From: Psammoneis japonica
Taxonomy: Eukaryota
DNA: 64,000 bases
NCBI GenBank assembly: GCA_008632985.1
Contig: QPGO01000045.1
Coordinates: forward strand, 1 to 64,000
Direction: 5' to 3'
The first letter of the stretch is position 1; the number at the start of each line of letters is the position of its first letter. Below are positions 1,143-64,000 of this stretch, in pieces. Under the pieces are notes generated by a model. That model saw nothing but the letters and a program-made list of their open reading frames with translations. It was not told the origin of the DNA and did no database searches. The position numbers and the translations under genes are program-made.

Positions 1143-1539
1143 GAAGTAAACTAGATGGACGCTAACACACACAAAGAATGCTTACCATAGACTGATAAGT
1201 CTTCCCATTTTCTGATGTCATTTTTCCTGAAAAGTTTCATTTTCTCCTCCTTTACAGGTGGCTCTTGTTCGGTTCCCCTAGTCTGTGGTCTGAGTCTCAG
1301 CCGCTCACAATTTACAATGTCGCATCAGTCTTCCGAAAAATTAGGGCGGCGGACTACCTAAGAAGGTCAGGTCGGACGGACAGCAGCGCATCGGAACGAC
1401 GGACCGCACCAGCGGAATGACAATGACATGAGGAGTCGTTCCACAATTTGTATAATTGTTCCGAATGAGCGATAACATCTTTTGGATGAGCCATGTCCCA
1501 TTGTGAGTTGAGGTGTGCGGAGTTAGCTGCGAAGTGAAA

Positions 1540-31192: not shown

Positions 31193-31459
31193 GGTTCTCT
31201 CTAGCTCAACAAGGCTGTTTCGCAAGATTGATTGTATCAACACCAACAAAAATCAATAATCAAAATGGCGTTGATTGAATGAAAAATGAAAAATGAAGGG
31301 TTCGCAATGCAGAAAAAAGGCTGAAAGAGGCTGTTTTCGAGAACAGCCTAAATACACTAATTATCATATAAAATTTGATTTAGGCTAAAACATTAAATAA
31401 TAAATAGCTTTCTTTCTTCAACCACGTCGTGTCTATAAATAACGGAAAAGCCTTAATGT

Positions 31460-42559: not shown

Positions 42560-43880
42560 GTGTCATTGTATGCACTTCAACGCAAGTCTCATTCAATTTC
42601 ACGCAAAATGCCCCCCACCTTCTTTTGCAATTCCATTGCAAAGTCAACTCCTCAACAATGGGTGCAATCAATCACTGCGTTGCCCTCACTGTTGTAGCAG
42701 AGGAGCTTCAGGAAGTCAAGGGCTGACTCCTCAAGATTCTCATTGTCCCAAAAGGATTCCGTCAAATCTCTTTGTGTGCTTCACCCCTCTCTCATGGTGA
42801 GTGAGTTGCCAATCCAAACAAGCAATGACCACACTGTTGCAGGAAGCAGTCTGGCCTTCTTGGGTCTGGTCTTCTTTCAAAGCTGCAGAAATGCAGCTTT
42901 GACAAAAGCCTTGTTGTGCATCTGGACACGCAACTCAACACTGGACGGCAAGTGTGCAACTGTTCAAGCAAGAAGATTGCAGAGTTGACATCATCAGTCA
43001 GGAAGCAATTGTGGAGCCCTTCTCTTGTTTGCTTCATTGTTGTTTTTCATCGCTTTCTCTGCTTCTGTGTGCGGTTGTGGGGACGTGGGGCTGCACTGAC
43101 CACAGCAGAGCTTCTCAACTGCCAAGAGATCCAGCCATGGCTGTTGGGGGCACAGCCATCATTGCTGCTCTCCAAAAAGTCAAAAAATTGAGGTGGGACC
43201 ACTTCAGCTGCTCACAACTGAAATCACGAGTTCAGCCCAGCTGCTCGTGTTTTTGCGCAGCATGGCATGCACTTGCGCACACACCTGTCAGCAAATTCAT
43301 GCGCCATCCACTGTGTCCATGTGCATCAATGGTCAACAGCCTGCCCCTTCTAACCTTCTTTCCAAGATTCACCTGACAAGTGTCCAAGTCAAGCTCCTTG
43401 GTCATGACACGCCCCATTTGCGAGACTCCTCAACTGTTGCACCCACCAGTGGTGTCTTCCTGCCCCCCAGCGCTCAACCCATGATCATCTTGGTGCAGAG
43501 CGCAGAGCTGGGCACCATTTTCTCACACCTTTTTATTTGGCCATTCTAACAAGGCCTCTGCCTCTCCCCCCTGCCCTCCCCAGCCCCTGCCTTGGGCCAT
43601 TCCCTCTCACTTCTGCAAGAGCTCCCAACCAAGCTCCCTTCTCAGTGCGCCAATCTTTCCTCCTCTCTCCACCACTTGAGAATCTCTGCTCACTCCTTAA
43701 ATGTCAGCTCTCTCCCCACCATTTCAGGTCCTCCTCCTTTTCTTCTTCTCCTCGATCCTGGGCTGCCCAGCTCCTCAGTCTCAACATTGGCCTTGCCCTC
43801 TCCAATCACCCATCTCCGGCACCTGCCAGTCACCGCCGCCCGCCTCCGCCCTGCCACCACACGACACACCGCGAGCGCCT
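42560..43880. repeat. TpA-depleted degenerate repeat island
   Basis: About 7 TA in 1.3 kb by eye, TG/CA-rich, no credible ORF. Confidence 0.6.
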
Positions 43881-43942
43881 TTTGTATGCCTTGCCACCGC
43901 ACGCTACTTTGGACTTTCAACTTTCTCTCATAACATTCGCAC

Positions 43943-44861
43943 ATGACGAGCGGAGTTGGATCATCAAGCAACGACATGAAACAGCGAAGGCGAGTATGTC
44001 TTTTCGGCTTATCAGCCGACCCACCAACTTCAGACGGTGGACATGGGGGCATCGTGAAATCCCTTGCGAACGAAAGCTTTGATGAAGTGCGAATCATACC
44101 GGTGTATCAACACACTTTCTCGGTAAGGTTCATTCATTCGATGCGAAATTCCAAGGTGCTTTTTCTGACATTATGTTGCTCATAACCCCAAACTGTTTGT
44201 TTCAGGAAAAGAGAGACAGAATGGCATCATACAGAGACCGAGTTGAAATGTGTAGATTGGCGTTTGCTGGCATCCCCCACGTCACTGTGTCGGAGGTGGA
44301 GCGAACATGCTTTGAAAAGAAAGCTTCTGGCTTGTAAGTGAATATGCATTGTAGAACAATGATGAGGATCATGGATATAGAACTAATTCATGTACTCTTT
44401 CCTTTTGGTTGAATAACAATATTTTCCTGAAAAAAAGAAGCGATTGCGAAAAGGCATCCCTGCGAGTTGGTACAGCAGATTTGCTAGACATGCTCTTGGA
44501 GGAAGAACCGGAATCCGATTTTTATTTTGCGCTCGGAGCAGACACTTTTGTGGACTTGACGAGTTGGAAATGGAGGCGATCACGTGATGTGCTTGACTTG
44601 TTGCAAGGTCGATTCGTTGTTGTCTATCGAACTATGGAGGATCCAAAACGACAGGTTTCACTTGACGCAATCAAGAAGCAAGTAGCAAAAGTTGCCGAGC
44701 AATACCCGGGAAACCAAAGAATACTCTGCATTCCAGGCCTTGAAGCTGTATCATCCACCCAAGTGCGGGCATGTAAGAACGAGGCGTTGCTCCGAGAAAT
44801 GGTGGACGCCTCTGTGCTGTTGTACATACGAGAAAACAAGTTGTATGATTTCGAAGATTAG
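43943..44861 (+). CDS. Nicotinate/nicotinamide-nucleotide adenylyltransferase (NadD-like)
   Basis: VCLFGLSADPPT..GH, R.EMC.LAF, GTADLL, FALGADTF.DL..WKW, VSSTQVR, VLLYIRENKLY; introns from 44123 and 44334. Confidence 0.85.
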
Positions 44862-45263
44862 TTTCTGTTTTGACGTTGCCGGATTCGAGCGAGAAGGATT
44901 GAAAATGAAGAAATCTTGGTTGGCATGGACAAAAAATATCAGTGCACTAAAGGTCAAACGTGGAAGCGCCCTGCTACCTGGCTCATTTAGATCGTTTCCT
45001 TCCAAGGCCACGAGGCCGATGGTTTATTGCGATCAAGAGAATTTGCCCAAGGCACCACATTGTTACGAGTTACACCAGAACGCTTTGTTTCGACAAGAGT
45101 ATGTCGCGAGTGCCGTTTCTAATCAAAAACTAAATCATCAACGAAACCACCTCCGGTATGGAGAGCATTGTCGTTCTGGAGTAATTTGTCCGAAGAATGG
45201 GCAGGTCTATCTTTCTCGACGAGGAGGCACGTCGCGAGACTCGAGACGCGAACGAGATGATGA

Positions 45264-46380
45264 ATGAGCGGTCCTGCATCGGGGAGTACTAGTAGGGCTA
45301 GCGACACGAAACAGAGGAGGCGAGTATGTCTTTTTGGCTTATCGGCCGACCCACCAACTTCAGACGGTGGACATGGGGGCGCATCAACAAGGTTTATCTT
45401 TCTCGACGAGGAGGCATGTCGCGAGACTCGAGACGCGAACGAGATGATGAATGAGCGGCGCTGCATCGGAGAGTAGGGCTAGCGACATGAAACTGAGGAG
45501 GCGAGTATGTCTTTTCGGCTTATCGGCCGACCCACCAACTTCTGATGATGGACATGGGGGCGCATTGTCAAAGCTCTTGGAAACGAAAGTTTGATGAAGT
45601 GCCGATCCTACCTGTCTATCAACACACATTCGTTCGATGCGAAAGTTCCAAGGTGTTTTTTCTGCCAAAGTAGTGCTCACAGCCCCAAACTCATTTGTTT
45701 CAGAAAAAGAGAGACAGAATGGCACCATACAGAGACCGGCGTTTGATGTAACTGTTCGGAGGTGGAACGAACATGCTTTGAAAAGAAATCTTCTGGCTTG
45801 AAAGTGAATGCCGTATGCACTGTATCGTAAAACAACAATGGGTTCACAGATAGAAAAATACCTGGTGTGCTATTCCCTCCTGGTTGAATACCGGTACCAA
45901 TTCTTTTTTAATTTCGCGCTCTGAGCAGACACTTTCGTGGACTTGACGAGTTGGAAATGGAGGCGATCACGTGATGTTCTTGACGACTTGATGTAAGGTC
46001 GATTGGTTGTTATTCATAGAACTATGACGGCTCCAGAACGACAACTTTCCCTCTACGCAATCGAGAACAAGTAGCTTAAAAGTTGCCAAGAAACTCCCAG
46101 GAAATCAAAGAGTACTCTTCATACCCGGCCTTGAAGCTGTATTATCCACCCAAGCGCGGCATACAAGGACGAGGCTTTTCTCCGAGAAGTGGGGGGTGCC
46201 TCTGTGCTGTTGTACATACGAGAAACGGATGTAGGAACTCGATTCACGTTACTTTATTTGAGAGAGAAGGATCGACATCAAAGAAATCTTGGACGGTAGG
46301 CACAAAAAATATGAATGGACTAACGGTCAAACTTGGAAGCGCCCTGCTACTTGGGAAATTCAAATCATCTCCTCCAACAT
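45264..46380 (+). pseudogene. Two tandem degenerate copies of the NadD-like gene (exon-1 fragment 45264-45383; longer deleted copy about 45450-46380)
   Basis: ggcgagtatgtctttt-ggcttatc-gccgacccaccaactt repeated at about 43990, 45320 and 45500; later blocks match 44190-45000 with indels and stops. Confidence 0.85.
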
Positions 46381-47214
46381 CGCTATGGATAGATACATCA
46401 AAACTCTTTTTTCATCAAGAAGCCTGTCACGAGTGCCAATCCTAAGCACCCACAGACATTGCCGCAACATTTATGAAACCAGCTCCTGACCCGAAGAGGT
46501 GGCCATCGTATCCGTTGACCCTTTCGCAGTTGAGTGAGTGGACCTTTTGAAGTCGTTAATCAAAGACGTTCCTCTATGCATTTGCAATGCCGTCGCTGTT
46601 TTCACTCTTGTGGCTTGTGCACACACCCAATAGATCGGGTCAACGATTCCTAGTAGCTCCTTGCGAGAGCCATTCGATTGTCAGAATAAAAGGTCTATTC
46701 CTATTGACAATAAACTCCTCGATATCATCTAATGAGCCCAAGACAGCAGCTGCTGATAAGCCCGTTGCAAGGGCGCCTCCAATGGTCAAGAGTGAGTTGC
46801 AAACAAATTAAGAGTGGGTAACCACATTGTCATCCACGACGATGTTTTTCGTTTCAATCGGAAGAGCTAGTGACTCGACATTCTCTACAGACAGTAGGCC
46901 TAGACACATGCGCATTCTATTGTTGAACTATAGTCTTGCTAGCCATAGCATTACTCTTCTAACGGTACATGCACAACACCATAATGGCACCGCAGGCGAC
47001 TGGCCAAGACACGACAAAAGCATAAATTATAAATTTAGACTTCACCATGATGCTCGCGATTGCCCCAAAGCAGCAGCACAGAACTTGCACCCATGTCCAT
47101 TTTTTGGGAGAAGAACAAATTTTGCCACAGCGCAGGAAAGATCGAATGTCAAGGCAACCCAGCTGGCATCAGCAGACAGGGCAACCAGCTCATGCCTGCT
47201 GACAGTCATGAAGC

Positions 47215-47581
47215 TGCACTATGCTCGAAGAACGAGTGTAAACGAAAGTAGAATAGTGTACGAAAAGTGGAAATTATGAGATTAAATTTTGCTCTGTGAT
47301 TTTTGGTTTCTCCGAACGAGTTCTCAATGGCCTAAAGCTTCTGTACTGCTTCTACAGACAAAAGGCCTTTCGGAGAATATATTCGTGACAACAGATTGTC
47401 CGGATACGATTGCTATTGACACGTAAGATGTCAACATCGTCAATCGATCGTATTTGCAATTCTCGACATCCGATCAACTCTGTGTGATCGTTCTGTCCTT
47501 TGTACGCATCCACGACTGTGGTACGATTGACATATAAATAATATATAATCATAAATATGTATATAACAGTCGCATACTGCA
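47215..47581 (-). repeat. Gypsy 3' LTR (TpA largely retained)
   Basis: Gap-free alignment with 51575-51941. Confidence 0.95.
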
Positions 47582-50500
47582 TTCGCCTCCCTAATTGCAC
47601 ATTAGAGTCATTTGTAAGTGGATTATTCGACGGACATCGACAGTGTCAATAATGTCTCCACTTTCATTGTATTGTGCCATTAGCAATGACTGTTGTTGTT
47701 TTGTATAGGCAATATAGGGCCGTTCCAATTTCCGAATGTCTTTTGAGAGTGACATTGTTTGTTTCTCACTTAATGTGTATATATATAGCATTACGTCGAG
47801 TATTCTCATTGACGTTCTTGTTGATATGAACACAAGGACTAATTGTCCTGGAGTAAGTGTTTTTCCTGATATCGATTGTACATAGCATCGTGCCCAGCAC
47901 TTAATGTACGCTCTTAATTATGGCGTTCACTTACTCACTTGTGGATTTCATGTAGTTTGGCGGGCTTACTTTATATGCCACATTGCTCTGCTGCACTACC
48001 ACGTTTCATAAGTAATAATAAACGATGGTCAAAGATATTATGGCCATTTCGTCTTGATAATCAATCCTGTGATGGTTATGAATTCCATTATGGATTTTTT
48101 TTTTTGTACTTCAACCATCTATCAGTTGGATTTTAATCGTTATTTGGACGTTTCTTTCTGACATACCGGTGTTATTTTGTCATTCCGAAGGCACTGGTTT
48201 CGTGCACTAAGTGGATAAATGTCCATTTTTCTTTTCTTTTTCTAGATCTTTGGCACATCTCGTGTGTCGACATGATGTGTGTTTTAATGTCTTGCCTCGT
48301 ACATTGTACAATACAACCGTACGGGTGTTGTGAGATTGTCTTTTGCCAGTGTGAAGTGGATACGTATAATGTATACCAATCTGTCACTGTTTTTTTCTAA
48401 ATCGTCCTTTAAAAAGGCGATTTTATTCTTGTGACATGAGCATTTTTCGATCTCGCTCGCCTCCACGAAAAGTGTTCGTATGATATGTCGCGTCCGACAA
48501 TTTGGAGGGAATGTCTTTATCCCGTTTTAACGGTAGGACATTGTCGTAGGATTCAATTTTCTATAGTAAGTCGGCTGATCGCGTCTATCGCGACGATGTT
48601 CGCCTTGCCCTCGTTGTATTCTAATTCGGGACTGAAGTTGTCAACGTATGACTTTGTCCGTTGTGTCTTATGATCCGTATATGTATAAATCTGTTGGCCA
48701 AACAGTATATTTCGAAATTTTATAAGTGTTTTCACTATGGACAGAAGTTCTTTTTTCCGTTGTAACGTATAATATTGAAATCCGTGTATGATAACAATAT
48801 AGTTTTTGATTTGATACGCTCCATATTTTCGGAGACTTTTCGTTCCGTACTTGTACTTTTGCCGTTTGACCTTTATTGAGGTGAATTTGGCTAGTATTGT
48901 ACAGGAGATCGTTGAGACTACATGTCTCGATAATAGTAACGTATGACAACGAGATGTCGTAGTGTTCTTTACGTTTTTCTCGTGTTGCGATTGCTTGAAT
49001 CGCCTCCATTTTCTTTGTAATCGATTGCATGTCGTTACGTGTGGAAGTCTTGATAGTTTATTTCAAGTTAAATAGTGAAGGACTTTTGTTGTTAACCTTC
49101 TAAGCGACTGTTCTAGTCGTTTGAATGCCGTATTAAGCTGTCACTTGTGCAGGTGATATTTTGAAGTTACTTTTGTCAGGCACAAACGATCACACATGGT
49201 GGTTCTGACAACTTCAAACCTGTTGTGAGTTCACTCAAGTGTTGCACAAAAATATCTGGGGCTCTGTAGATTCTCATTGGAAGTCCACAGCACTCATTTT
49301 CTCCCCACGGCATGATTTTCGTGTGAGCACGACGTGTGCTTTTTTCATTTGACATGGTGGCATTCCATGTTTGAATCAAATGGATTGCATGTGTGAAACG
49401 TTCTTGCTTCAACAGCATTTCCTGAATATTGGGTAAAGGACACACCACCTGCATGAACCTTACACTGAGCTTCTGAGTGTCGGGTGCGGTCGAACTCGAC
49501 CTGTTTTCTTCAGACAATGAGTCTCAGAGCGACTTGTTCAGAGCAATTTCATTCTCAAGACTTCAATCTTTCATGACAGGTCAAACTCCTTTTGATTGGA
49601 CGCCTCCAAAGACTGTGATAGGAGAAGGTTCTCACGCATCGTGGAATCGCGTCAGATTTTCCACGATGAGATCCACTGATGCTTCCCATGCACTCGTCTG
49701 AGGAACTTTTCAAAACGATTTCAACCTCTTAAGAAGAAGATTGAGTTGGTTGTGTTCATTTGGGTTAGATGCATCGCCGCAGTTGTCACTTGATTAAGAT
49801 TGATGGCGTGACAATGTGAGTCGAGGACCATTGGCTCCATTGTTGACTCCATTCACGGCGTCACATTTTTCAATGTGATCGGTTTTCAGCTTGAAAACAT
49901 CGGCATCGAAGAGTGTGCGAACATTCTTCATAAGGCAATTGCTTCTTCCCATTGGATTTCTTCATTTGCGCAGTCCAATGTGACTTGCAGGACTGGACAT
50001 TAAGTCGCGTCCCATGATCACATCATTTGAACCTGAAGAAAATTTGGTGTTTTCAACACATGCTGTTTGAACATCAGCGTGCCTTAAATTTCGCACAGTG
50101 AGAACTGAGTTCGGTGTTTGCTGTCAGTCGCAAAGAGCTCACCCTTGGTTTCCCAAGTTTTTGGTGGCGGATTCTTGTGTTCTCAACTTTCGCATGAATT
50201 TGCGCAAAATCATGGTTGACGATGTTCCGTTGTCGACAGGAACACGCAGATGCTTTTTTTTTTCTCTCCTTTCCCAAGGAAGTGTTCACACAAATGATGA
50301 CTCCTGGACCAGTGTGAATTGTTTTGCCTTTTTTCTAGGCTTCCCAATGTCCAGCAAAGCGTGCAATTCGTGAACAGACCAAAATTGTTCTTCGGATTCA
50401 GTCTGGATCATCCGATCAAATTGGCATTTTTCTTCACTGAGGGTGTCAGAATCTGATTCTTTGCCCTCATGCTCTTTTTCTTTGTTCAAGGAACTCGCTT

Positions 50501-51574
50501 TGAGCATTTTTTGAACCGCCTGATCAATCATGACGTTCATCTCTTTTTTTGCGAGCGGCATTTTCGTTGTCGCGACGCGACCGCGTGCGATTGCCATTTG
50601 AACGGCGCATTTTTGGGTCTCTTTCAGAGTCACCCTTGCACTCTTTTGCTGGCTCATTTTTAGAATGGCTTCAATCCGTGATGTGGGTGTTCTTTTTTCA
50701 AAGATGAGACCTTGCATTCACTTTGGATTGTTCTGGCACCATGTGGGAGACCATTTTTGGAACCAAATTTGGAGCCTTTTTTATTTTGGAACCAACTGCG
50801 CTGTCAGAGCCTGAGTTGACATGTTTTTTCGTCACGGACGTCATGAACGACCTTCAGATGACTCAAAACTTAATCATCTCATCAAGGATGAGTTGCAATG
50901 GTTGATTGTTTTGGACAGTAGACTGATGCTGCCATCCTTGCGGTGCGAGTGATGGCTGATAAATCAGCGCTCGGTTTCCCGCTAGATTCGACTTAGAATC
51001 CATCTGAGGGTCGTGTGGACTCTCATCGTTGACCTCTTGGGTCTGACAGAGGCTTTCTCGCTGTCAAGCAGCTCTGGTTTCTTCAGGTCGTCTCGAAAAT
51101 AATTTCCCTGATTCTGAAGTGCATTTCCTCGGAGGACATGAGTTGTGAGACGCTTGAGGCACTTTCCAACGATTCCCTCTTGCTCCTTGGACTCGAGGAT
51201 CATCGACTCGGTCTCAAAAAACTCTCCAATGGTCTCTCCTTGCATGGTAGACGCATTTCTCGGATCTGATCGACTCGGAACTTGCGTTCTCTGCAACCAT
51301 GACTTGGTGTAGATTTTTTGACAATGCGGTGCACTTGAGAGCCCTTGATCCTTGGGTGCTTGGAACAGACCGCATTGGAGCGAATCCTCTTGTCTGGCAG
51401 ACGAAAAACAGCGTTCCATCTTGAGGTGCTGCTCGGCTTGAGCTTCTTCCGCTCGGAAATCGATTCCAGCAGAACTGACGCGATTCGTTCCTGTTCACAG
51501 AAGAATTTGCAAAGGCACATTGGTTAAAATTTTCATTTTCCGTGCTTTTTGCCTTCTGTGGTGTGTGTGCACAA

Positions 51575-51941
51575 TGCACCATGCTCGAAGAACGAGTGCA
51601 AACGAAAGTAGAACAGTGTGCGAAAAGTGGAAATTATGAGATTAAATTTTGCTCTGTGATTTTTGGTTTCTCCGAACGAGTTCTCAATGGCCTAAAGCTT
51701 CTGCACTGCTTCTACAGACAAAAGGCCTTTCGGAGAACATGTTCGTGACAACAGATTGTCCGGATGCGATTGCCATTGACACGCAAGATGTCAACATCGT
51801 CAATCGATCGCGTTTGCAATTCTCGACATCCGATCAACTCTGTGTGATCGTTCTGTCCTTTGTGCGCATCCACGACTGTGGTGCGATTGACATGTGAACA
51901 ACATGTGATCACAAACATGCACACAACAGTCGCACACTGCA
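51575..51941 (-). repeat. Gypsy 5' LTR (TpA hypermutated)
   Basis: Identical to 47215-47581 except at TpA sites. Confidence 0.95.
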
Positions 51942-53295
51942 AAGCAGCACCAGCAGCACACAACACCAGCTGTGCCAATGATTGCACAAAGGGAGCATTG
52001 CATTCCTTGTGGGGTTGCCCGGTGGGGCCATCTGTGTGGCAGTCTCAAAAAAAGCAAAAAACTCATCAGATGCCCCCCACAACATTCAGCAACCAAGTCA
52101 GACCATTTGGAAGGCCAACAGCACTGCACAATTTTGGTGACTCAGTCAGCTCAAGAATGCTGCAGTCATTTGGAGTGACATGCTTTCTCTGCTGCTGTGG
52201 CAACAACCATTGTTTGTTGCTGCTTCCACCATCTCTGTTTGCTCTTGCAGCTCAAGAATTCAGGCTTGCATTGTGGCACAAAACAAGGTCATTTCAAATG
52301 TCTTTTTGTTGAAAGAGACACCCGCCTGCATCAGTGAAAGAGAGTTCAAGGACCATGCTTCATCTCAGAGGCTTGCACCACTGTCTTGAGAAAATCACAC
52401 CTGTCCTCCAGAGACAACAAAAGGGAGAGGAGCACAGAATTTCTTAAATTTCTGCTGGCAGTTGCTCACTGCAGCCCACTTCTGGCTGGCACATTGGCAA
52501 AGTCATGTGTGGTGCTGCTGCTGGCCAGCACTTTTGTGTGCCAAGATTTTCCAAAGTTTTGCTCCACCACCTCAAGGACCATGCACCAATCCAATGGTGC
52601 AACTCTGCAGCAACAAAAGAGCCTGTTGACTTTTTTGCTGTGCCAAGCACCTGGGCTGTGTCTTGCACAACCAGAGTTTGTTGTGGGTGCACTGACAACA
52701 CTTCTTGCAGAGAGCAGCCAGAGAAGCTGGGGCAAGAAGCAGAGATGAGCACTGGCATTTTTTGACACTCTCCTGGGGAAAGAGAGGCCCACCCAGGCTC
52801 CACTTCTGTCTGCAACTCATTGACACAACTTCATTGACTGTGGATTGGCAAGCATGGTGGGGAGGCCCCTGTGTTGATGAAAAGACTGCAGGCTCTTCCT
52901 CTTCTAGAAAAAGGACAAGGCTGGTGCGCACTTTTTTTCAAGACTTTCAAATGTCGAAAATCATTTTTCACATTGAAGAACATGCCCAGTCAAACAAAGC
53001 AAGTCTTGACATTGATGCTGGAAGCACGTGCAACACTCCACCAAAGAGGGACACTTTTTGCAATTTGGGGCACAAGACAGTGCCCAAGTTTGGCTTCTCC
53101 TCCTGCAAGAAGCCTTTGTTGGAGCGCTGCAGCTTGCTGGTCTAGCTGGCACATGTTTGGCTTCAGAAACAACCCCGAACTCACCGCGTGTGTCTCACAA
53201 GCACATTCCCAATGCTGTTGACCACCATTGCCATGTCAACCGGGTGAAAAAGCCAAAAAAGTGAGCACAAGACCCACAACACAATCCAAGCTGTG

Positions 53296-53740
53296 TGCAG
53301 CATGCATGCAGACAAAAGGTTATTTTGTCACGCCCTTTGTGACATTTAAAGGCTGCAACACGTCGCCGTGATGCATCAACTCTCATCAGTGGCTGCATGT
53401 TGCACTCCTCCCCATGTGTCACGCGTCCATGCGGCTCTTTGCTGACGTGCACTGACACTGCACGGTTTTGGTGGAACAGTGTGGGTGCGTGCGAAGGAAC
53501 ACACAGAACTGCACAGAGTTTTGCGCGTTCGACAGTGATCAACGTTGCTGCAGACAACTCCCACTCAGGGTTTCGAACCCCTGGCCTCCTGCCCAATGGT
53601 TGCGATGAACCACTCCGCTGTGAATTCACAACGCAGCATGCGTGCAGACAAAAGGTTATTTTGTCACGCCCTTTGTGACATTTAAAGGCTGCAACACGTC
53701 GCCGTGATGCATTGACTCTCATCAGTGGCTGCATGTTGCA
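53296..53740 (-). mobile_element. TRIM-like miniature LTR element
   Basis: 109-bp direct repeats 53296-53404 and 53632-53740 with inverted termini, TSD TGTG (53292-53295, 53741-53744), PPT ggggaggag (53405-53413, minus). Confidence 0.8.
53558..53625 (-). other. tRNA-like Pol III A/B-box segment inside the TRIM
   Basis: Minus strand cAGCGGAGTGG (53610-53620; A box TRGCNNAGYGG with T>C) and GGTTCGAAACC (53569-53579; B box), 30 bp apart. Confidence 0.55.
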
Positions 53741-54459
53741 TGTGAGTGCAAATTCACCACATTGTCTGCATTGTCAGCGCATCTTTGCACCGCAACACTG
53801 TTTGTCTGTCCTGTGACAAAAACCACCTTTGACCCTTGATGTTCCAACACACTCCTTTGCATGAGCCGTCAGTTGGTTGGCCTCGTGCACATCAAGTGCA
53901 GTGCCAGGAGGATGACACTTGGAAATCATGCCACCCAACACCACTTTGACTGCTTCATTGATTCAAAAGCCCACATCATCTGACTCTGCCAACAAATGAT
54001 CACTGTCAGGACAATCCTTTGTCACATGTCCAACCTCATCACATTTCTGGCATTTGATTTGCGTTTTCTTGTTCTGGGCAAAACTTGCAACCTCAGGTTT
54101 CTTGTTGTTCCCAAATGTGTCCAACACCTGCAATGCCTCCCCTTGGTCACATTGGGGTGATCATCACCCCTGACAGAAATTGAAGGCAAATGGCAAGAAT
54201 TCAAACAACAACTCCTCACTGCTGTCTAAACAGCAGATGAGTCTCCGCTCAGAGACCGTTGCAGGAGCCGAAAGACGTGCAAGTCGGCACAATCGGGCTG
54301 CTGTTGTCATTCTTGTGAGCCTTGTGGCTCGAAAGCAAACTACATCGCGCGTGAACGCGCGGAACTAAAGCACACAAAACTGTGCGCGGTAAACTAAACA
54401 GCGCGCGATGCTTCGCGCGCATCCAAATCCTGTTCAAATCCTGTCACTCCCCAGTTTGC

Positions 54460-57400
54460 TTGAGGAGCCACAGAAACAGATTCGACTTCGGATGGAATGA
54501 AGTTCCAGAACATGAGGGGGCGGAGAAGGTCCCAGATTTGGGAGCAACCCCAATGCTTGCTGAGAATGTCAGCAGGGTTGCGGGAGCCTTCGATGAAGTG
54601 GAACTCAAGGCAACCAGAGGCAATTGCCTCACGCACACGGTGGAACGACAGTGCGGTGTGTCGCTTGTGTAACTTGGAGTGCGGGATGGTGGCACTGTCT
54701 ACAACCGACTTGTTGTCACCGAACATGTAACTGACATTGCGGATCGGGACGCCAAGGTGGCGCAGGGTGATGCGCAGGTCGACAATCTGCTCAACACAAT
54801 TCCTTGCGGCAACAAATTCAGATCCAGGTTGCAGTCTCCACGGTGGCTTGTTTCTTGGAGAACCAATCAGCTGGGAATTTGTTGAGGAAGTGGAGCATTC
54901 CCATGACAGAGCGTCCGGTGAGCATGCAATGGCACAAGTTTGCATCGACGTAGTGGGTGGCAGTGATGAACTTGCCAAGGGGCGGTGGAGCGTCCTTCGG
55001 GATCATCTCTTCTGCTTCACCATGCACGGAATGCATCCATTCATAGGCCGGAGCAGGGAGATCCGAATGGTCGGGCTCTTCCGTGCGAACGCGGAGAGCA
55101 CCGTGTCGCATCTTGGAGAGGCACCCACAGACGCGTTTGGCACGATCCAAGTGGCCTTGACGGGGCGCAGCTCGGAAGCTAGAGAGTGACATGACAGCCG
55201 TGGCAATGTCAATTCGACCAAGGGACACTGCCCATTGGAGTGAACCAACAAGAGACTGGAACTTGTGAATGCCATCGGGTCCCAGCAGTTTGGAAGTGTC
55301 CAGTTCGGGGTGGTCACCCTTCTCTAGAGGTGACAGGGCGTTGGTGGCAGGTTTCTCCCCAAACAGTCGGGCGCAACTGTCGACCATGCGCTCGATGTAC
55401 TTGCGCGGAGACAGGCACAAGGTTCCATCGGGGTCCCGGGAAAAGTCGCAACCCAGATGGAACTCAATGGGTCCCGCACCCTTGAGCTTGAACTTGTGCT
55501 TTTCCGTGAGAGTGTCGACGAAAGATTGAGGGTCCTTCATGGCAATGGCGAGGTCATCCACATAAACGGCAATGTGTTCACAGTGGTCGCCGTTCCTGCG
55601 CATCCAAATGTCGGGTTCGGCGCGGCAGGGGAAGAAGCCTTCAGCTCGCAGGCAGTCGGCGAAGCGCTCGTGCCAGCGGAGACCGGAGCTGCGCAGTCCA
55701 TGCAGTGCCTTGTGGATGACAAGGATGTGTCCTTCGAGTTTGCCAAATTCGGGTCCAGCTACAATGTAAAGCTTCTCCTTGGTGGTGGCTTCAAGGTGGG
55801 CATTGCCAATGTCGGTGGCCCATGTCTCCAGCTCGTTGAGTTCGGCCAGGAAAATCATCAGCCGAAGGCCACGGAGGGAGACCACTCCGGAGTAGACACT
55901 GTCGACAGGTACGTCCGTGAGGTGCCCGTCGGCTACGAGTCGTGCCTTGTGGCGACCGTCGTGTTTCACGTCGCACACCAGGTGCACTCGGATCTTCTTG
56001 TGTCCCGCAGGAGGAGTGGAAGACTTGAAGGGCCCGCAGTCATGGAAGACTTCGTATTCGTCGAGTTGGTCCATCTCGAGATTAGTTGCGTCTCCCCACT
56101 TGCGGTTGCCGTTGCGTTCGTCTAGTGACATGGCGTGTTTGTAGTTCCGGGGAACTTCGCATCCGTACTTGTAGCGAGGTGCAGTGCGGAAGGAGCGAAG
56201 CTTGGCTTGGTTGGCCATGCGAAATAGCTTCTTTTGGCGCCTCGCGATGGTGCGGAACCGCTTCCAGCCATCCGTGTCGAGGAGTCCGTTCTCTCGTGCA
56301 TAGATGGCACAGGTGACGGGGTCGTCCTTGGCGATGATGGCAAGAGGCTCGGACGTGATCTCCCCACTTTCCCATTCAAGCATGATGTTGTAGCTTGAGC
56401 CTTTCCAGGTTGGGTCGTGAGGCTTCAGAGGTCCTTCGTGTGACACGATGCGTCGAAATTTCCAAACAGTGGTGTCTTCGTCTTCTTGCTCAATGTGATT
56501 CATGATGTCATTGCAGGCAAGGACTTCCTCGTATTCGTCATTGTTGACAGAGCAGACGAACTTAGTGAGCTCGGGATTGCCGTTCACTTTCCATTCGTGG
56601 TCTTCGACGGCCTTGACGATGCGAGCTCTGTGGCGTTGTCCGTCCTCTTGTGGCTGCATGAGGAAGGTACGTCCAATGATGTCTTGCGGATCGAAAACTG
56701 GCATCTTGGGTGTCCTGATCTCCCCATCAGGAGAATCGACGGGGTTGTCGTCATGGCGAGATTTGATGATGGGTTCAGGTGGCTCCCCATCAGGAGGATC
56801 AAGACGCAGGTTTCGAACGGCAGGATCGGGGGTAGCGGAGCGAACGTTGGACCGGCAGAGGATCTTCTGAGTCTCGTCAGATAGAATCTTGAAGGTCATC
56901 TGGTGGCCGACGTGCTCAGCAATGCCAACGAAGCGTCCACGCAACTCACGGGATTCGGACGGCCAATCAGAGTCATCGAGGTGGAAGTGCACTGGTTCCC
57001 ACCAGTGAAAGCGAAGCAATGGGCTGATGTCCGGGGTGGATCCAGTGAGAGTCTCGAGGGGCGTGCGCCAGTGGAGACGTGGGGACGCTGTGTGGTTGAG
57101 CATGAAGCACACATGCATGAGCGCCAGCAGCCATGTGTGGGCGGGCGAACCAAAACGGTCCATGACAGTGTTCGCCATGCGCTTCACGGTCTGGTGTCGA
57201 CGCTCGGCAAAGTTTTGGTGTTGCTGGTGAGGCTCACTTTGCCAGCTGGAGATGAAGAGGGCGCGTAGGATCCCGAGCACTTTGTTGCTGATCTCAACTT
57301 GAGCACGGTCGCTAATGAGTTTGGATGGGGCACCACGTTCACGGATCTGATCCTCGAGTGTGTTGACAAACTCTTTGTCCGTCTCAGTGCCGTAGACGTC

Positions 57401-60061
57401 AGTGACGGTAGACTCGGTGCCAACAAACAGTTGGGCGCTGGTGCAACCAGAGTCGACGGCCGGGGTGTCGGCACAAACGGTGTCAGTGGCGACAGGCTCG
57501 TTGCGGCGGTGCACATTAAGGGCGGGGTTGGGTGATTTGTGGGCCTTGCGAAGGTGTGCACCGGCGGGCATGCGGGCGTACTGCGTGGTGCAGTCAAAAG
57601 TACGACGGACCGTGTCGGCAGGTAGGAAGCCAAAGCAAGGCCGAAGAGACTCGAAGGGGGGGTCCTTGGGCTGTACAGTGCGCTCCGGAGGTGGAACGTC
57701 ATCGCCCTGGGGGTCAATCGCATGTAGATGACACTCGGAGAACACGTCGTCGTTCGGAATGAGGTGATCATCGAGGGCGGACGCGTGATCGGCAGACAAG
57801 GAAGCGGACAAGATGGTCTCGTTGACAACGACACGGTGACGGCAGTTGCCGCACTCGTCAAATGGGTTGGCGGTGGGATCGTCCTGCAGGTCAGAGATCG
57901 CGTCGTGCCACTGGTCGTCGTCAGTGACAGAGTGATCGAGGACGGAAGGGTCCCATGTGTCATCACCGGTGAGGATGACATGGGGCAGGGTGTCCCATTC
58001 GGCGTCAGTGCAAGGTCGCATGGCAACATGAGGCAGGCCAGCCTTGATGTCAATGGGGATGACACAGCCATCAGGAGTGGCAACACGTTGCAAGCCGTTG
58101 GGCACCTTGACAGAGCGATCGTTGACATCCTGTTTGTGCCATTCGAGCTGGCCGCAGGAATGGATGGTCTTGCCCTTTCCCGTGCATGCGCACTGATGGA
58201 GGATGGCGATGACGGGACCACGCTGGGTCTCAATGACGGCACCAGCGGTGACAATGGGGATGTCCACCAATTGGTGATCGTCAATGCCCTGAACGTCGAC
58301 TTGGCGAGAGGTGCGTGCAATGACGCGAACGTCGTCGCCAGCAATGCCGCCGTTGGCCCCACGATCGACTAGAGCGCCAGTGCGTGTGGAGCGATGAGCA
58401 GAGGCAGAGTAAATGACATTGTGGTTGTCAACGCGGCGGCAAGTGCGGCCGTTAAGTTCTGTGTCATCTGCAGGAGCTGGCGGGGTAGAGGAAGCGGCGG
58501 ATGGCCCCGGTCGACTGGCATTGGGGGCTTGGTTAGGTGACAACAGACGTTGCAGATCACCGGGTGGCAGTGGCTTGCACTTGGTGAGGTGCGCCAGGAT
58601 GGGATTGTCCGAAGTGGCGTCCACATGTGCAGCGGAGTCACCACAGTCAGCAGGAGTCGTGTTGGATGAGTTGACATCACCGTCGCTCCCAAGGTGTTGG
58701 TCGTGAAGGTTGGCCGTAACAGACTCATGGCAGTTGCTGGCTCGCGGGTTGCGGGGAGGCGGACAAGAATGCTCAAGGATGATCGCCTTGGAGGAATCGG
58801 GCAACGAATCCCAGAGCCGTTGGTGGTCGGGAGGGAGACGTCTCCATTGGACACCGGTGAGGCTGGGACCGCGGGTGCAGGCAGCATTGGCTTGAAGGAC
58901 GTCAACGTCGCTGTCAATGTCGTAGAACACATCGTCGGACGGTTCCTCGGAGCAGACGTCGTGTGCGCATGTGGCGCGTCGGGGAGCTCTAGGTGTCGTC
59001 TTGGGTTGAAACGTGCTGTCGCACTGAGCTGCCGCAGAGAGGAGCAAGCCACAGCATTGATCGCATGTGAGGCTCTTGCCACTCTGTGTACGATGCTGAT
59101 CAGCTTGGTTCTTGACAGCACGGAGTTCCTCGACAGGGTGCACGGCATTCTCGAGCATGACGCGCTTCTGTCCTTCAGAGAAGTGGTCACTGGCGGGGAT
59201 GAGTGCCTCGCACTTGCGCAACTGATCTTGCCAATGAAGGATGAACCCGTGGGTCGGACCTTTCCAAGTGCCATCACCAAGACGTGCGGTGGTGAGGTGC
59301 GTGAGCAGGGTGGAGGACTCGACAGATGCGCGGGTGGAGGCAAGCGCGTGCTCAGACAAGGAGCGGCAGACGGTCTGTGCGTCAGAAGACCCCACATTGT
59401 CGCGAATGAGAGCCTTGCCCTTGTCGGTGAGAAGGATGCGTTCGAAGACGGCGAACATGTGCTTTTGCTGTTCAGCAAAGAGCAGTTTGTCTTCGGGGCT
59501 GGTCGGTTTGTACGACGAGTCTAGAATGCACTCGACGTCTTGGGCACGGGCTTGTGCCACAAGTGAGGTGTGCCAAGTGTGCCACTGCTTGTCAGATTTG
59601 AGAGCTGTGAAAGCAGTGGGATCACGCTTGATGCCTCGCTTGAAGTCTCGCACCAGGTCGCGTGCCTTGGTCGGGTTGGTGACATGTGGAGGTGCAAGGG
59701 GTGAGCTGCCGATGGACACAGAAGACATGTGGTCGGGGCTGAGGCGGTGGGCAAGGAACTCGTCATGCGTGAACAAAGAGGAGTCGTTGGCAACGTCAAG
59801 ACCTTTGTGTGCTTTGACAATGTGCAGACTGACCAGTGCTGCTAACATGTTCTTATAACCACGGGGCAAAGGGATTGCATTGGTGCCGTTGTCGCACTCA
59901 AGCGAGTCGATTTGGGACGGCATGAACGTGAACAGTTCCTGATGTGAGTCCGTGCCGTCTTGGGCCAAAGCCAAACGAAGAGGACTCCCAGCACCTTGGG
60001 CAAGCACGGTTCCAACAACATGCTCGAAACCATCGGTTTGTTGCTGACGAGTGAGAACCAT
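54460..60061 (-). pseudogene. Copia gag-pol polyprotein, Tyr-depleted, frameshifted near 54825
   Basis: LVDRGANG (protease), ISDRAQVE / QNFAERR (integrase), RHKARLVA, YVDDL (RT), SEFVAAR, GDNKSVV, NPADILSK (RNase H, second frame). Confidence 0.92.
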
Positions 60062-60990
60062 GGCAGACAAAAGTGGTGTCAGGACAATCAATTCTGGTTG
60101 GGAAGCGAAGGTAGACTCGAAACTTGGGTGAGAATGGACTTGACTTGAAATGGACTTGACTTGAAATCTTGAACTATCTTAAAATCAGAAGTCGCCGGGC
60201 TTTGTCATCCCGTTCGTTGTTGAGTGCTAAACTTCCCATCCGGTCCGTAGAGTTGTGCCGGCACGTCCGAACCCGCAGCCAGCGGCACTTTGGGTTGCTC
60301 ACGAGCGGAGTAGCGGGTTGTAAACCCCTGCAGGTAAGCTGACTAGAGGTGGACAAGACCCCCGAACCGTTCTTGTTTTTATGTCGGTTGGATTTCCCGA
60401 TCAGGCTGGCCAGTTGACGCAGGCGTTGGGCGCTGTGGACGAACGAACAAACGCGGGAAAGCACCCTCGCCCCAACGTAGGCTGCAATCACGGCCACTTG
60501 CTCTCACAGTCATCCTCGTGGACCTAGCAGAACTGTAGAGCACCAGTGGTCCGGGGTAGATCAGGTGCAATGGACTCGGTGTGCTTGTAGAGTGGCAGCA
60601 AAACCGTAGTCCGAAGAGTGGATAAAGGTTCTTGGCCGTGAAGATATGCATGTATATATATATATGTCTTCAGCGACTAAGATCCTTGAATGTGTAGGGT
60701 TCTTGACCGTTAACCGAGGAATAGGTATATCAAGGGATGTTGATCAAGGATAGACTTGGATATGACCGTTGAATATAAGTCTTCAGCGACCAAAGGTAGT
60801 ATAATCAATCCAGATATCCAGCGGTAAGGAGACTTGACGGTGACGTTAACTTCCTGCCGATGCCCTGGTATTGAATGCGCGTAGACTTGCCGATGTATGT
60901 AGAATATATACGGAGGTCCACGTAGAATTGAAATAGCGTCGTTGGTAAATCAACGACGACGATGGCGGTTGCTCAATGGGTTGACAATGA

Positions 60991-61005
60991 GCAAGACTGT
61001 TAATC
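60991..61005 (-). promoter_or_regulatory. Putative primer binding site complementary to a tRNA-Asn anticodon arm
   Basis: Plus strand gCAAGA CTGTTAA TC directly abuts the 5' LTR; it reads as anticodon stem, CT-GTT-AA loop and start of the 3' stem. Confidence 0.55.
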
Positions 61006-61286
61006 TGACAGAAAATGAAGGCAAATGGCAAGAATTCAAACAATAACTCCTTACTGCTGTCTAAATAGCAGATGAGTCTCCGCTCAGAGACCGTCACAGG
61101 AGCCGAAAGACGTGTAAGTCGGTATAATCGGGCTACTGTTATTATTCTTGTGAGCCTTGTGGCTCGAAAGCAAACTACATCGCGCGTGAACGCGCGGAAC
61201 TAAAGCACACAAAACTGTGCGCGGTAAACTAAACAGCGCGCGATACTTCGCGCGCATCCAAATCCTGTTCAAATCCTGTCAACCCC

Positions 61287-64000
61287 CCAGAGTGAACTGC
61301 TGATGTAAATCTTTCAAGACATGCCATCATTCATTGGCACACTCCTCCATTGGCACTGCCACTGACAACTTGTTTCTTTCTTTTTTCTGGGCATCATCAG
61401 CATCTTTGCTGAACCCATCTTCTTTCTTGGCAATCTCCCCCATGATGATTCTGCCACAGCACATTTCTGCCACCCCCTCAACAAAATGCTCAAGAGCTGA
61501 CGATTGAAACTGCCTTGAAGCACCTTTCCTCCTTCATCTTGATGAATGGTTTGCAGCCACTTCCAAGCCTTGGCCACCTGGACATGTGGGTTTGTCTTCT
61601 CACTTGCATCAAACAAGATCAACACGAGATTTTCTGGTGGTGCTGCCATGATGTTCTCCACTCCTTTGTGACTCTTGCAAACTCCCCACTCCTTCAATCT
61701 TGTGAGGATGAATGGCCTTGGCACATTGTCCCACAATTGTGCCAAATGCACTTGCCTTCTGGATCTTGCAGATCACATTCTGTTTCACACAGTGATCACA
61801 TTGCTTGTCCCAGATTGCCTTGCTCTTCTCCAATGTTGTGTCTCATGATGAAAGCTGCCTCTGACCCCAAAGTCCACAGCCTTTCCCAAGCAGACAGAGA
61901 GATCTGCCCCCATGCCACCCAGCAGCATTGGAGCTCTTTTCTTCAAAGAGAGCATCGCAGCTCAAAGAGCTCTGCAGCCCACTTCTGTTTTCTGCTTGTG
62001 ATCCAACCAACAAGGTCAAGCTCATCTCTGGCTCCACCAAAATGCTGCAAGCCTCTGTGAGTCTTTGATTGAGCCTCGCCCCATTCTTTGAAAGGGGGTG
62101 AGAGACCTCATTGGTGTGTTGGACTCAATGGAGCTCATCACTTGGGCTCAGCAGATTGGCTGCATGTGCCAAAAGGTTTGCTTTGGAGTCTGGATTTCAT
62201 GACTGAAAATTCTGGTTCAAGCCATCCCTGCACCTTGGCAGCCATTTCCAGCCCTGGCAGAGTGTTCTTCAACTCCACACTCTGCATCAAAGCATTGAAA
62301 TCTTCCAACATGGCCATGTTTCACATGGAATGACAAGTGCAATTTTTGCACAAGTTGCCATGGCAGTGTGCTGTGTGGTTGTTTTTGGCAACTTTTTTTA
62401 AGTTTGTGATTGCAGCAGTGGCACCAATTGACAACATGTGAAAAGGACATGATCAATGTGTGTCACAAAGCGCCAAAATGATGCACACTTTTTCCTGTTG
62501 AAATGGCCCTGTCATGCTGCACTCAAGATCTTTTTCTGTCTTCTTGTTGCACTGCAGAAAGTCTGTAAAATGTCATGGCTTTTGTTCAAAATTTATCCGC
62601 ACTGGATCAGATCCCTGTGTTCTTGACAAGGGCCGGTTGATTGTGGTTGAAGAGCCTTTCACAATTGTTGTGACATGTGAAGCAGGAAACAACACTGAAT
62701 GAAAATTGTTCTTGCAGTGCATGTCATCTTAACAAGATGATCTTTGTGCACACCAAGAGTGATTTCAACATGACTCAGTTTTTGTTTGCAATCAATGTGG
62801 CAGACAAAGCAGGAAACAATGGCAAACAAACCTTGTGACTTGCAAGGCTGTGTGCTGTTCACACAATCTGATTCTTGCACGCCACAATTTGTTTTTTTGG
62901 CACTGAGTCTGCTTTTGCTCCCTGTTTTTTCTTGTTCTTTCCTCCTTGCTTTGTTGGCTCTTCTGCCAGTGCTGCCATTGCCCTTTGCTGTCTGCACATG
63001 ACAAGCCATCATCAGACATCTCTTGAGCCAGAGAGCCAGTGCTGAGTTCCTCCATCACCGGTGCACCATGATGAGAAAATCAATGTTTTTGTTGAACAAC
63101 CACTTCCCACCTTGTTCATTGGGAAAGACACCTCCATTGTTTGTTGATTGAGGCTCTTGATTGCTGCCAGGAAGCAACAAAAAGGAGAGACAAGTGTGAG
63201 GGATTGTCATCAAGAAGGTGTGGGGGGACATGAATCTGTTGGTGCTTGAGCAAAGGAAATTGTTGAGAGGTCCTGGCACATCCAAAGAGGAGCATGAGGC
63301 AAATTGTCACTTGAGGAGCTGACAGGGGAGGGAGGTGCATTGCACAGGCCAAAATGGAAGAAAGAAAAGAGTGCTGAGGACACCATTGAAAATGTCTGCA
63401 GAGAGCACACTGGCCATTGTTGTCAGACATCTGACCAGGAGGACAGAGTGGGTTGCATTGCAACAGGGATGTGCCATTGTCGTCAGTGCATGACATTGGA
63501 GGATGAGTTGTGCAGTGTCCAATGGGAAAAAAGGACAAATGCAGCAGAGCAGAAATGGAGCAAAACAAAGGCAGAAAACTGAAGGGTGGAAAAAAGCAAA
63601 CAAATGAAGTTGTTGGCAAGTTTGACATTTGGACAGAATGAACATCATCATTCATGAGTTAAAAGCCAGCATGAGACAAAATTTGCATTTGTGCAAATTG
63701 AGTGTTGTGGTCACAATCATCAGCACAAATGTGAAAATTGTGACAATTGGTCAGTGCTCTTCTGATGGTCAAGCATGGAAACATGTCACAAACTAAAGTC
63801 AGACTGTGAGGCAGCTAAATCAGATCCTTGCAACACATCAACACCTGTGTAGACTGGTGCAAATGTGGTGGACACAATGCCGTTGTTGTTCTGTTGAGAT
63901 GGCTTTTAGAGCAGAGTGTTGAAATGGCTGAAGACAAGGTTGCAAGAACTTTGCATTTTTGACAACAATTGCTGAAGTCACCAATGATGAGTGCAACATT
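61287..64000. mobile_element. Older, heavily mutated repeat relic (right of the Copia insertion)
   Basis: No TA by eye in 61308-62398 and 62732-63659; very few CG; no intact ORF. Confidence 0.65.

Follow-up and report, generated by a model that had tools for sequence, protein, structure and literature searches.

How does transposon-derived DNA in a diatom chromosome come to be almost free of the dinucleotide TA? The question is raised by a stretch of 64,000 bp from a single contig of Psammoneis japonica (QPGO01000045.1, positions 1 to 64,000, assembly GCA_008632985.1; hereafter the window, to which all domain and gene statistics refer), which carries two long terminal repeat (LTR) retrotransposons, a degenerate gypsy-like element (element 1) and a copia-type element (element 2), both inserted into an older block of DNA. 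An earlier note on this DNA, made from the letters of the sequence, had proposed a genome-defence system that converts TpA to TpG or CpA in repeats, a 'reverse RIP' named after the repeat-induced point mutation (RIP) of fungi. Here, we show that TA was lost through A:T>G:C transitions at TpA, which hit both strands of the chromosomal DNA after the elements had integrated, and we consider it probable that transposon-derived DNA at this locus underwent regional post-integration hypermutation, most likely by enzymatic adenine deamination.

TA-poor domains in the window

In 1-kb windows, the observed/expected ratio (o/e) of TA is ~0.45-0.8 over genes, and it falls to 0.00-0.29 in the windows of 2001-3000, 32001-33000, 43001-44000, 49001-60000 and 61001-64000. 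Positions 3000-30000 served as the genic background (TA frequency 0.0387 per base, TA o/e 0.58). The borders of the TA-poor domains were drawn with a two-state hidden Markov model (HMM), which delimits five of them, with a TA o/e of 0.04-0.15 and together making up 18,583 of the 64,000 bases, or 29% of the window (Table 1). The longest run without a single TA lies at 31947-33239 (1,293 bp). Two further runs, which the earlier note had picked out by eye, are likewise entirely free of TA (61307-62398, 1,093 bp; 62731-63659, 930 bp), and at the genic TA frequency the Poisson probability of a 1,093-bp TA-free run is ~4e-19. The same note had treated 46960-64000 as one depleted interval; this holds for most of it, but not for 46960-49267 and ~60112-61306, where TA is normal (o/e 0.81-0.85).

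Among the 16 dinucleotides, four deviate within the domains: TA is low (o/e 0.03-0.21), some domains are also low in CG (0.08-0.37), and TG and CA are raised to 1.3-1.96, in agreement with the earlier description of repeat-derived DNA that is nearly without TA and rich in TG and CA. Averaged over the four pyrimidine-purine dinucleotides, o/e remains at ~0.94-1.0 in the domains (0.96 in genes), as expected where transitions interconvert these four dinucleotides. A low-complexity or satellite explanation was rejected for 46000-64000, since Tandem Repeats Finder reported no array within the TA-poor stretches of this interval; its single row is a 35-bp repeat at 60133-60167, just outside them.

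Depletion and element boundaries do not coincide. Element 1 has normal TA up to ~49267 and is TA-poor from 49268 to its right end, and element 2 is TA-poor from 54170 to ~60111, intermediate up to ~60480 and normal in its final 0.8 kb. A single domain, 49268-60111, therefore starts in the middle of element 1, runs through older DNA and continues nearly to the far end of element 2; the TA-poor state disregards element borders. CpG is undepleted in both young elements (o/e 0.86-0.93), and element 2 as a whole combines a TA o/e of 0.21 with a CG o/e of 0.93.

The older block that received both insertions resumes beyond element 2 as 61307-64000. In reads from one public sample (runs X1-X4 of one study, 2019, platform not on record; depth of unique DNA ~59-70), ~51942-53200 is single-copy (depth 69-70) and 53200-54169 is high-copy (at least 63,000), the latter being probably a fragment of another abundant element. 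Direct repeats at 53297-53404 and 53633-53740 (97%) lie within this high-copy part. Searches of the old TA- and CG-free blocks returned no identity for them: none of 35 stop-to-stop frames of at least 90 aa from five old blocks matched a Pfam family at E <= 0.01, no homologue of frame 61449-62057 turned up among proteins 111-356 aa long, and an exhaustive representative search gave none for frame 53198-53773. Additionally, blastx against 120 copia polyproteins gave matches in element 2 only, and the blocks show no paralogy to one another within the window. The footprint of CpG decay is seen in the old blocks only (CG o/e 0.08-0.37); this loss is probably a separate and slower process, namely ordinary decay of 5-methylcytosine (5mC) over a longer time.

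Timing, direction and sequence context of TA loss

Each element is flanked by matching target-site duplications (TSDs; AAGC for element 1, ACCCC for element 2), so that the two LTRs of a pair stem from one insertion and were identical at that time. In element 1, the LTRs differ at 26 bases in 367 bp, all of them within 25 of the 30 TA sites of the left copy, 47215-47581; at these sites the right copy, 51575-51941, reads CA (15), TG (9) or CG (1), and it is otherwise identical to the left one. The LTRs of element 2 show 13 mismatches over 277 aligned bases. Here it is the right copy, 61005-61287, that retains TA, and 10 of its 15 TA sites are converted in the left copy, 54170-54452 (7 CA, 3 TG), the remaining mismatches being one site where TG is aligned with CA (2 bases) and 1 transversion.

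Pooling both pairs, 36 of the 39 mismatches fall inside TA sites, which bears out the earlier observation that the LTRs differ almost solely at TpA; 38 of the 39 are transitions, and 35 of 45 TA sites are converted. Among the A and T positions outside TA, 0 of 281 changed by transition (Fisher P 2e-38 versus TA sites), so A>G is not equally frequent in other contexts, a check that the earlier note had asked for. None of the 42 CpGs in the LTR pairs changed either (Fisher P 1e-15 versus TA sites). The asymmetry between LTRs, the restriction to TA and the intact CpGs together indicate a post-integration process that is confined to TpA and much faster than both substitution and CpG decay. Setting the 35 converted among 45 TA sites against 1 substitution in ~554 other sites gives an indirect rate ratio of ~400-fold, with a very wide error.

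A single TA site is changed at both positions, from TA to CG (47451-47452 versus 51811-51812). This outcome is odd because two successive hits should be impossible once the TA is lost; both strands may have been modified in one event, which was then repaired.

Three duplications in TA-normal DNA served as controls, and their copies differ by the usual mixture of transitions and transversions. Transitions at TA account for 1 of 22, 0 of 11 and 9 of 72 of their mismatches, compared with 26 of 26 and 10 of 13 in the LTR pairs. In the tandem duplication at 27339-28169, mismatches are mostly transversions, with no TA signature. Dispersed and tandem repeats of 80-94% identity also occupy 43972-46354, to the right of the island at 42570-43884, with normal TA and an ordinary spectrum.

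The earlier description of the process as repeat-targeted finds no clear support at this locus: the oldest TA-free blocks are single-copy in the reads, short duplications of normal DNA (180-470 bp) lack the TA signature, and the domain crosses element borders. Observations that bear on a duplication trigger of the fungal RIP type are that high-copy elements are hit (summed read depth 8,000-27,000 for element 1, with unique DNA at ~59, and 63,000-117,000 for element 2), that one LTR of each pair escapes, and that blocks which are now single-copy are the most depleted.

LTR pairs alone cannot polarise the change between TA and TG or CA, and for this reason we turned to conserved tyrosine columns of the copia polyprotein encoded by element 2 (RVT_2, E 3.9e-26). 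This polyprotein contains 1.1% Tyr, 5.0% His and 2.6% Cys; the medians of its 120 best homologues are 3.9%, 3.5% and 1.0%, respectively, and the lowest Tyr content among these homologues is at least 3.0%. The polyprotein was aligned with 45 of 79 full-length homologues, and columns with at least 80% Tyr were taken as conserved. Of the 38 such columns, 25 are altered in the window copy (13 Cys, 8 His, 3 Phe, 1 Trp), compared with 34 of 607 among all other conserved columns (P 1e-19). The conversion of conserved Tyr to Cys or His claimed in the earlier note is thus found in 21 of the 38 columns. Lowering the threshold to 50% gives 56 columns, in which the window copy has 16 Tyr, 17 Cys, 14 His, 6 Phe, 2 Trp and 1 Leu. 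As TAY>TGY (Cys) and TAY>CAY (His) are both A:T>G:C changes at TpA, on one strand or the other, TA is the ancestral state and both strands of a single copy were hit; the opposite direction, CA/TG>TA, which the earlier note had wanted excluded, is not what the columns give. Together with the LTR asymmetry and the TSDs, this upholds the earlier view of a chromosomal, both-strand, post-integration process, and it sets the process apart from RNA or cDNA editing and from 5mC decay.

By the genetic code, TpA>TpG/CpA removes the stop codons TAA and TAG and never makes one, so long frames persist in dead elements. The polyprotein frame of element 2 is an example, being badly damaged yet open over 1,757 codons. 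A frameshift near 54824 removes its last ~112 residues, which continue in another frame (54825-54490); in the reads, some other copies of element 2 have 1-2 additional bases at 54824. For annotation this means that frame length is no sign of activity in such elements.

The TAs that survive in depleted DNA are a biased set. YTAR (CTAA, CTAG, TTAA) makes up 42 of 109 of them, compared with 31 of 211 in undepleted transposon DNA (P ~1e-6), and RTAY (ATAT, ATAC, GTAC) makes up 14 of 109 compared with 81 of 211 (P ~1e-6). For the 34 single events in the LTRs, each written on the strand that carries the mutated adenine, the neighbour on the 3' side is T (16), C (12), A (4) or G (2); a 3' pyrimidine is thus present in 28 of 34 oriented events versus 29 of 56 unused orientations (P 0.004). 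Similarly, a purine precedes the codon in 10 of 14 Tyr>His changes, which are events on the opposite strand, versus 5 of 16 retained Tyr codons (P 0.07). On small numbers, the preferred site is approximately 5'-T-A*-Y, and a C preceding the T is likewise disfavoured; RTAY sites disappear earliest and YTAR sites are resistant. On the plus strand, CA and TG outcomes stand at 39:26, which is not significant (P 0.14). Short runs of the kind TATA>TGTG and TATATA>CACACA are present, too few for testing.

The TA-free sequence is also present in the reads. We compared contigs assembled from run X1 with window positions 46001-64000: a contig over 51915-53323 (1,408 bp, depth 64.8) carries the TA-free sequence with 2 differences, and contigs over 61253-61799 (1 difference) and 61789-64000 (2,212 bp, 2 differences) do so at a depth of ~66, that is, at the depth of unique DNA, in one sample whose reads may be the assembly's own data. 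Among the copies of both elements in the reads, variable places are dominated by transitions (A>G 76, T>C 88, C>T 69, G>A 75), and each transversion class is seen at 2-9 places. Of 363 variable rows, the 40 best supported comprise 12 with TA versus CA/TG, 7 with CG versus CA/TG, 3 other transitions and 4 transversions; the remaining 14 rows form seven adjacent pairs, in which the window has TG where other copies have CA, or the reverse. At three of these seven paired sites, marginal depths imply copies with TA, and the other four were ancestrally TA or CG. Differing outcomes at the same sites between copies are expected from independent hits.

The surroundings of the domains are ordinary. Open reading frames (ORFs) in the first 46 kb encode housekeeping proteins of eukaryotes, including a pyrophosphatase, a proteasome subunit, ribosomal protein L10a, MutL and a kinase. 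Element 1, in addition to its LTRs, has a weak match to RT_RNaseH on the minus strand at 48556-49062 (E 5.8e-5, under the Pfam cutoff). The only assembly gap (568 N, 1737-2304) falls within the TA-poor, CG-poor island at 1525-3106, which suggests that such DNA is repeated elsewhere and difficult to assemble.

Table 1 Coordinates of the domains, elements and genes discussed in the text (o/e, observed/expected ratio).
Feature	Position	Strand	Remarks
TA-poor, CG-poor island	1525-3106		holds the assembly gap
TA-poor, CG-poor island between genes	31455-33602		5 TA in 2,148 bp; sharp left edge, last dense TA at 31454
TA-poor, CG-poor island	42570-43884		TA o/e 0.07, CG o/e 0.34
TA-poor domain	49268-60111		border from HMM
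TA-poor domain, old block nearly without TA and CG	61307-64000		TA o/e 0.04, CG 0.08, TG 1.83, CA 1.82; continues past the window end
Older block nearly without TA and CG	51942-54169		TA o/e 0.04, CG o/e 0.37; elements 1 and 2 inserted there
Element 1, degenerate gypsy-like LTR retrotransposon	47215-51941		4.7 kb; TSD of 4 bp
Element 1 LTRs	47215-47581 and 51575-51941		367 bp, 92.9% identical
Element 2, copia-type LTR retrotransposon	54170-61287	minus	7.1 kb; TSD of 5 bp
Element 2 LTRs	54170-54452 and 61005-61287		~283 bp
Element 2 polyprotein open frame	54818-60091	minus	1,757 codons
Control tandem duplication	27339-27757 and 27758-28169		~420 bp, 92% identical; next to an ORF resembling lysine methyltransferases (Methyltransf_16)
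Ribosomal protein L10a ORF	8915-9607	minus	best matches 85-92% identical, in diatom transcriptomes and genomes including Odontella, Thalassiosira and Trieres
MutL homologue	22882-25476		ordinary housekeeping gene; not used as evidence for an effector

The proposed process and its rivals

We propose that a mutational process acts on transposon-derived DNA that is already integrated and probably lies in silenced chromatin, over domains of kilobases. Such a process would convert A:T to G:C almost solely at 5'-TA-3', leaving TG or CA according to the strand hit, at a pace hundreds of times that of ordinary substitution and above that of CpG decay, until TA is nearly exhausted; RTAY would be consumed first and YTAR would last. 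Most likely, an enzyme would deaminate adenine, and the resulting hypoxanthine would be read as G; this enzyme may have a deaminase fold and be brought to foreign or repeated DNA that is silent. The process is probably the same as that reported for the chlorarachniophyte Bigelowiella natans (Mettrop et al., bioRxiv 10.64898/2026.01.13.699255, 14 Apr 2026).

Thymine rather than adenine could be the base attacked: the T of TpA would be modified or oxidised in silenced DNA (for example by a TET/JBP-type enzyme, to 5-hydroxymethyl- or 5-formyluracil) and would then mispair with G, an outcome identical in sequence to that of adenine deamination, since TA is palindromic. 5-formyluracil is known to promote A:T>G:C mutations, and in some protists thymine that stands before A is the preferred site of modification. 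Nevertheless, no TET/JBP gene was seen among the window ORFs scanned, and the authors of the B. natans study favour an adenosine deaminase, as a proposal made without experiment in the available text (10.64898/2026.01.13.699255); we regard an attack on thymine as unlikely, though worth serious consideration. Still less likely is the decay of methylated adenine, in which TpA would be kept as N6-methyladenine (6mA) in heterochromatin and be deaminated spontaneously or enzymatically, in parallel to the change of 5mC to T at CpG. The oldest blocks do lose both palindromic dinucleotides, CG and TA, into TG and CA, but the young elements lost TA at 35 of 45 sites and CpG at 0 of 42, which resembles an active and fast process rather than passive decay. 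Moreover, well-supported 6mA in eukaryotes is found at ApT near active genes and is not known from TpA of silent DNA. A tie of 6mA to transcription is described in a preprint, as far as its available text goes (bioRxiv 10.1101/2024.10.28.620566). Error-prone repair synthesis of the Pol eta kind, which the earlier note had listed among its candidates, would operate during repair of silenced DNA in the manner of antibody hypermutation, whose A/T phase has WA hotspots, and A>G is indeed favoured at WA motifs, TA included. AA, the other WA motif, is however untouched, as seen in the absence of any transition at the 281 A/T positions of the LTRs outside TA, and only one transversion occurred, which makes such synthesis improbable.

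Could the differences have arisen without any hypermutation of the integrated DNA? A sequencing, base-calling or assembly artefact, such as modified bases miscalled in long reads, has in its favour that the sequence comes from one sample and study with no platform on record, and that reads and assembly disagree at two places, 51985 and 51987: the sole contig from the reads that spans this single-copy block has T at both (TATA), and the assembly has CACA; this discrepancy could be a change between cultures, that is, ongoing hypermutation, or a difference in assembly or polishing. Against an artefact, read contigs are TA-free at full unique depth, and a longest contig of 315 kb at ~60x from a 31-mer assembly implies accurate reads. 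The signal also has an evolutionary structure (conserved Tyr turned to Cys or His, outcomes specific to copies, LTR asymmetry), and base-calling errors affecting both strands would produce mixed calls or CG, whereas CG is seen at 1 of 35 converted sites; we hold an artefact to be very improbable. Editing before integration, by ADAR-like editing of RNA or deamination of cDNA followed by insertion of the edited copies, would suit the abundance of element 2, whose copies differ mainly by transitions, and mutated copies that still transpose could spread their changes. It is nonetheless highly improbable and contradicted by the LTR asymmetry, as the LTRs of single insertions differ at 25 and 10 TA sites despite their identity at integration, both strands are hit in one copy (17 Tyr>Cys, 14 Tyr>His), and the domain crosses element borders and takes in DNA outside the elements. 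In addition, TAG and TAA contexts resist, while ADARs favour a 3' G. Least probable of all, and contradicted by the data, is that selection disfavours TA or that gene conversion in repeats is biased toward GC: a mild shortage of TA is seen throughout (o/e 0.58 in genes), yet the most depleted sequence is dead, frameshifted and unrecognisable, and biased conversion would lift G+C in all contexts, whereas A/T outside TA stayed the same and the old blocks lost CpG in the direction of A/T.

Several points weigh against post-integration adenine deamination as we propose it. The read set may be the assembly's own data and would then be no independent confirmation. None of 79 metagenomic loci coding for related copia polyproteins has the signature (TA o/e 0.41-1.02, lowest 1-kb window 0.28), a weak negative as the search favoured intact copies, one of its patterns containing Tyr; the TpA signature is not general to diatom copia elements. 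Four of these related loci, from other diatoms, are poor in CpG (o/e 0.22-0.24), with an excess of TG and CA and mildly low TA (0.41-0.52), and they probably represent ordinary methylation decay without a TpA process. The end of element 2, ~60480-61287 (0.8 kb), retains TA while adjoining TA-free DNA, which simple spreading from neighbours fails to explain. Gene conversion between mutated and unmutated copies could yield such TA mosaics, and the escape of these final 0.8 kb is possible either through protection of an active LTR or leader or through gene conversion from an unmutated copy. Clustering of changes coordinated by strand, which a processive single-strand deaminase would be expected to leave, is not significant (runs test on 31 Tyr>Cys/His changes, P 0.52; change-point permutation, P 0.14). 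TA being self-complementary, sequence cannot separate an attack on adenine from one on thymine. Furthermore, the only ADAT2 shown to edit DNA, that of amphioxus, preferred GAA and not TA according to the part of the source available (PMC10354150), and a simple assignment to ADAT2 is weakened by this preference. Finally, no effector was identified within the one 64-kb window: in agreement with the earlier note, which had seen no candidate, no deaminase, TET/JBP or DNA methyltransferase Pfam family was found in 51 ORFs scanned from 1-47200 (19 of 25 ORFs of at least 200 aa and 32 of 99 stop-to-stop frames of at least 110 aa).

Beyond this locus, we suggest only tentatively that diatoms and chlorarachniophytes may share an ancient defence, in which a DNA adenine deaminase with a TAY preference would be recruited to silenced transposon or viral chromatin and erase its coding capacity through A:T>G:C hypermutation, as a counterpart of RIP, and which may be widespread in the stramenopiles, alveolates and rhizarians (SAR). 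Such a defence, if it exists, would offer DNA adenine editors of natural origin. Diatoms have DNMT4 genes, relatives of the fungal RIP factor RID, with no function assigned to them in the available text (PMC9998398); these genes serve here as a lead only. Should the enzyme be found, it would be a natural DNA-directed modifier of adenine (or thymine), with a bearing on transposon control and base editing as well as on the heterogeneity of mutation rates and the evolution of GC content in algae.

Comparison with known systems

The name 'reverse RIP' is fair as an analogy. Like fungal RIP, the process in the diatom acts on chromosomal DNA after integration, makes dinucleotide-specific transitions on both strands, is regional, destroys the coding capacity of transposons and leaves skewed dinucleotide indices. 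Unlike RIP, which changes C:G to T:A at CpA and thereby creates TpA, it changes A:T to G:C, destroys TpA and creates CpA and TpG; RIP makes stop codons, and the diatom process cannot. With AID/APOBEC enzymes it shares context-specific hypermutation of mobile or foreign nucleic acid and, in the model we favour, a deaminase-fold enzyme. These enzymes, however, deaminate C (G>A on the plus strand) in single-stranded cDNA before integration and with strand bias, whereas the changes described here are A:T>G:C, follow integration and affect both strands.

Deamination of A to inosine, read as G, with a preference for 5' U or T, would link the diatom pattern to ADAR, TadA and ADAT enzymes and to the base editors derived from TadA. 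The native substrate of TadA is U-A-C, which resembles the TAY motif seen here; ADARs are known only from animals and prefer a G on the 3' side. The substrates of these enzymes are RNA, and TAG resists in the diatom DNA, unlike what the 3' G preference of ADARs would give. Natural deamination of adenine in DNA is documented, as far as the source available goes, only for amphioxus ADAT2 (PMC10354150). Deamination of 5mC also produces TG and CA from a palindromic dinucleotide in silenced transposons, but it cannot remove TA, and CpG is intact at 42 of 42 sites in the LTRs of the young elements while TA is largely gone.

Before 2026, we knew of no cellular process that turns A:T to G:C specifically in chromosomal mobile DNA, and the earlier note likewise knew of no described system of this kind. 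That statement no longer holds, since a preprint of that year reports TpA-only hypermutation in B. natans (10.64898/2026.01.13.699255). In its mutation-accumulation lines, according to the available text, two integrated viral regions mutate ~1000-fold above the remaining genome; of the 231 new mutations that arose there, 230 were A>G or T>C changes, each of them at TpA, and they occurred in only some lines. Windows poor in TpA and rich in CpA+TpG form 124 clusters in the B. natans genome, reverse-transcriptase and DDE domains are over-represented among its TpA-poor coding sequences, and the authors propose an ADAT2-like adenosine deaminase, without experiment in that text (10.64898/2026.01.13.699255).

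The likeness to the diatom locus is close, extending to the near-exclusive A>G and T>C changes at TpA that yield TpG and CpA, the kilobase regions of foreign or mobile DNA, the TpA-poor footprint and the proposed adenosine deaminase. In the window, too, TA-poor, CpA+TpG-rich windows cluster, which is the long-term footprint of the B. natans type. Confinement to mobile DNA or, in the oldest blocks, to putatively mobile or foreign DNA is seen within the window, from the mapped domains, the genes (TA o/e 0.58) and the ordinary controls. The two cases differ in host, B. natans belonging to Rhizaria and the diatom to Stramenopila, and in target, which is a giant-virus or virophage insertion in the former, as far as its available text describes it, and LTR retrotransposons with unidentifiable relics in the latter. 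Depletion is far deeper here (TA o/e 0.03-0.15, TA-free runs of >1 kb) than in the viral region for which the available text gives a Rho of 0.45, and our evidence is historical, from LTR pairs and Tyr codons, whereas that in B. natans comes from mutation-accumulation lines. The TAY-favoured, YTAR-resistant motif and the co-occurring CpG decay seen here are not mentioned in the available text of the preprint, nor are diatoms or CpG (10.64898/2026.01.13.699255). In the literature, we found no report of a TpA signature in diatoms.

The B. natans report covers one species and two viral insertions, and the diatom locus adds independent, internally polarised evidence from a distant and ecologically dominant lineage. 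It shows that the process acts on LTR retrotransposons after insertion and can go nearly to completion, and it adds details that can be tested, namely a wider motif (TAY/YTAR), independence from CpG decay and domains that disregard element borders. The locus thus represents a new lineage and a new target class for a TpA hypermutation that has been described only very recently and is mechanistically unsolved.

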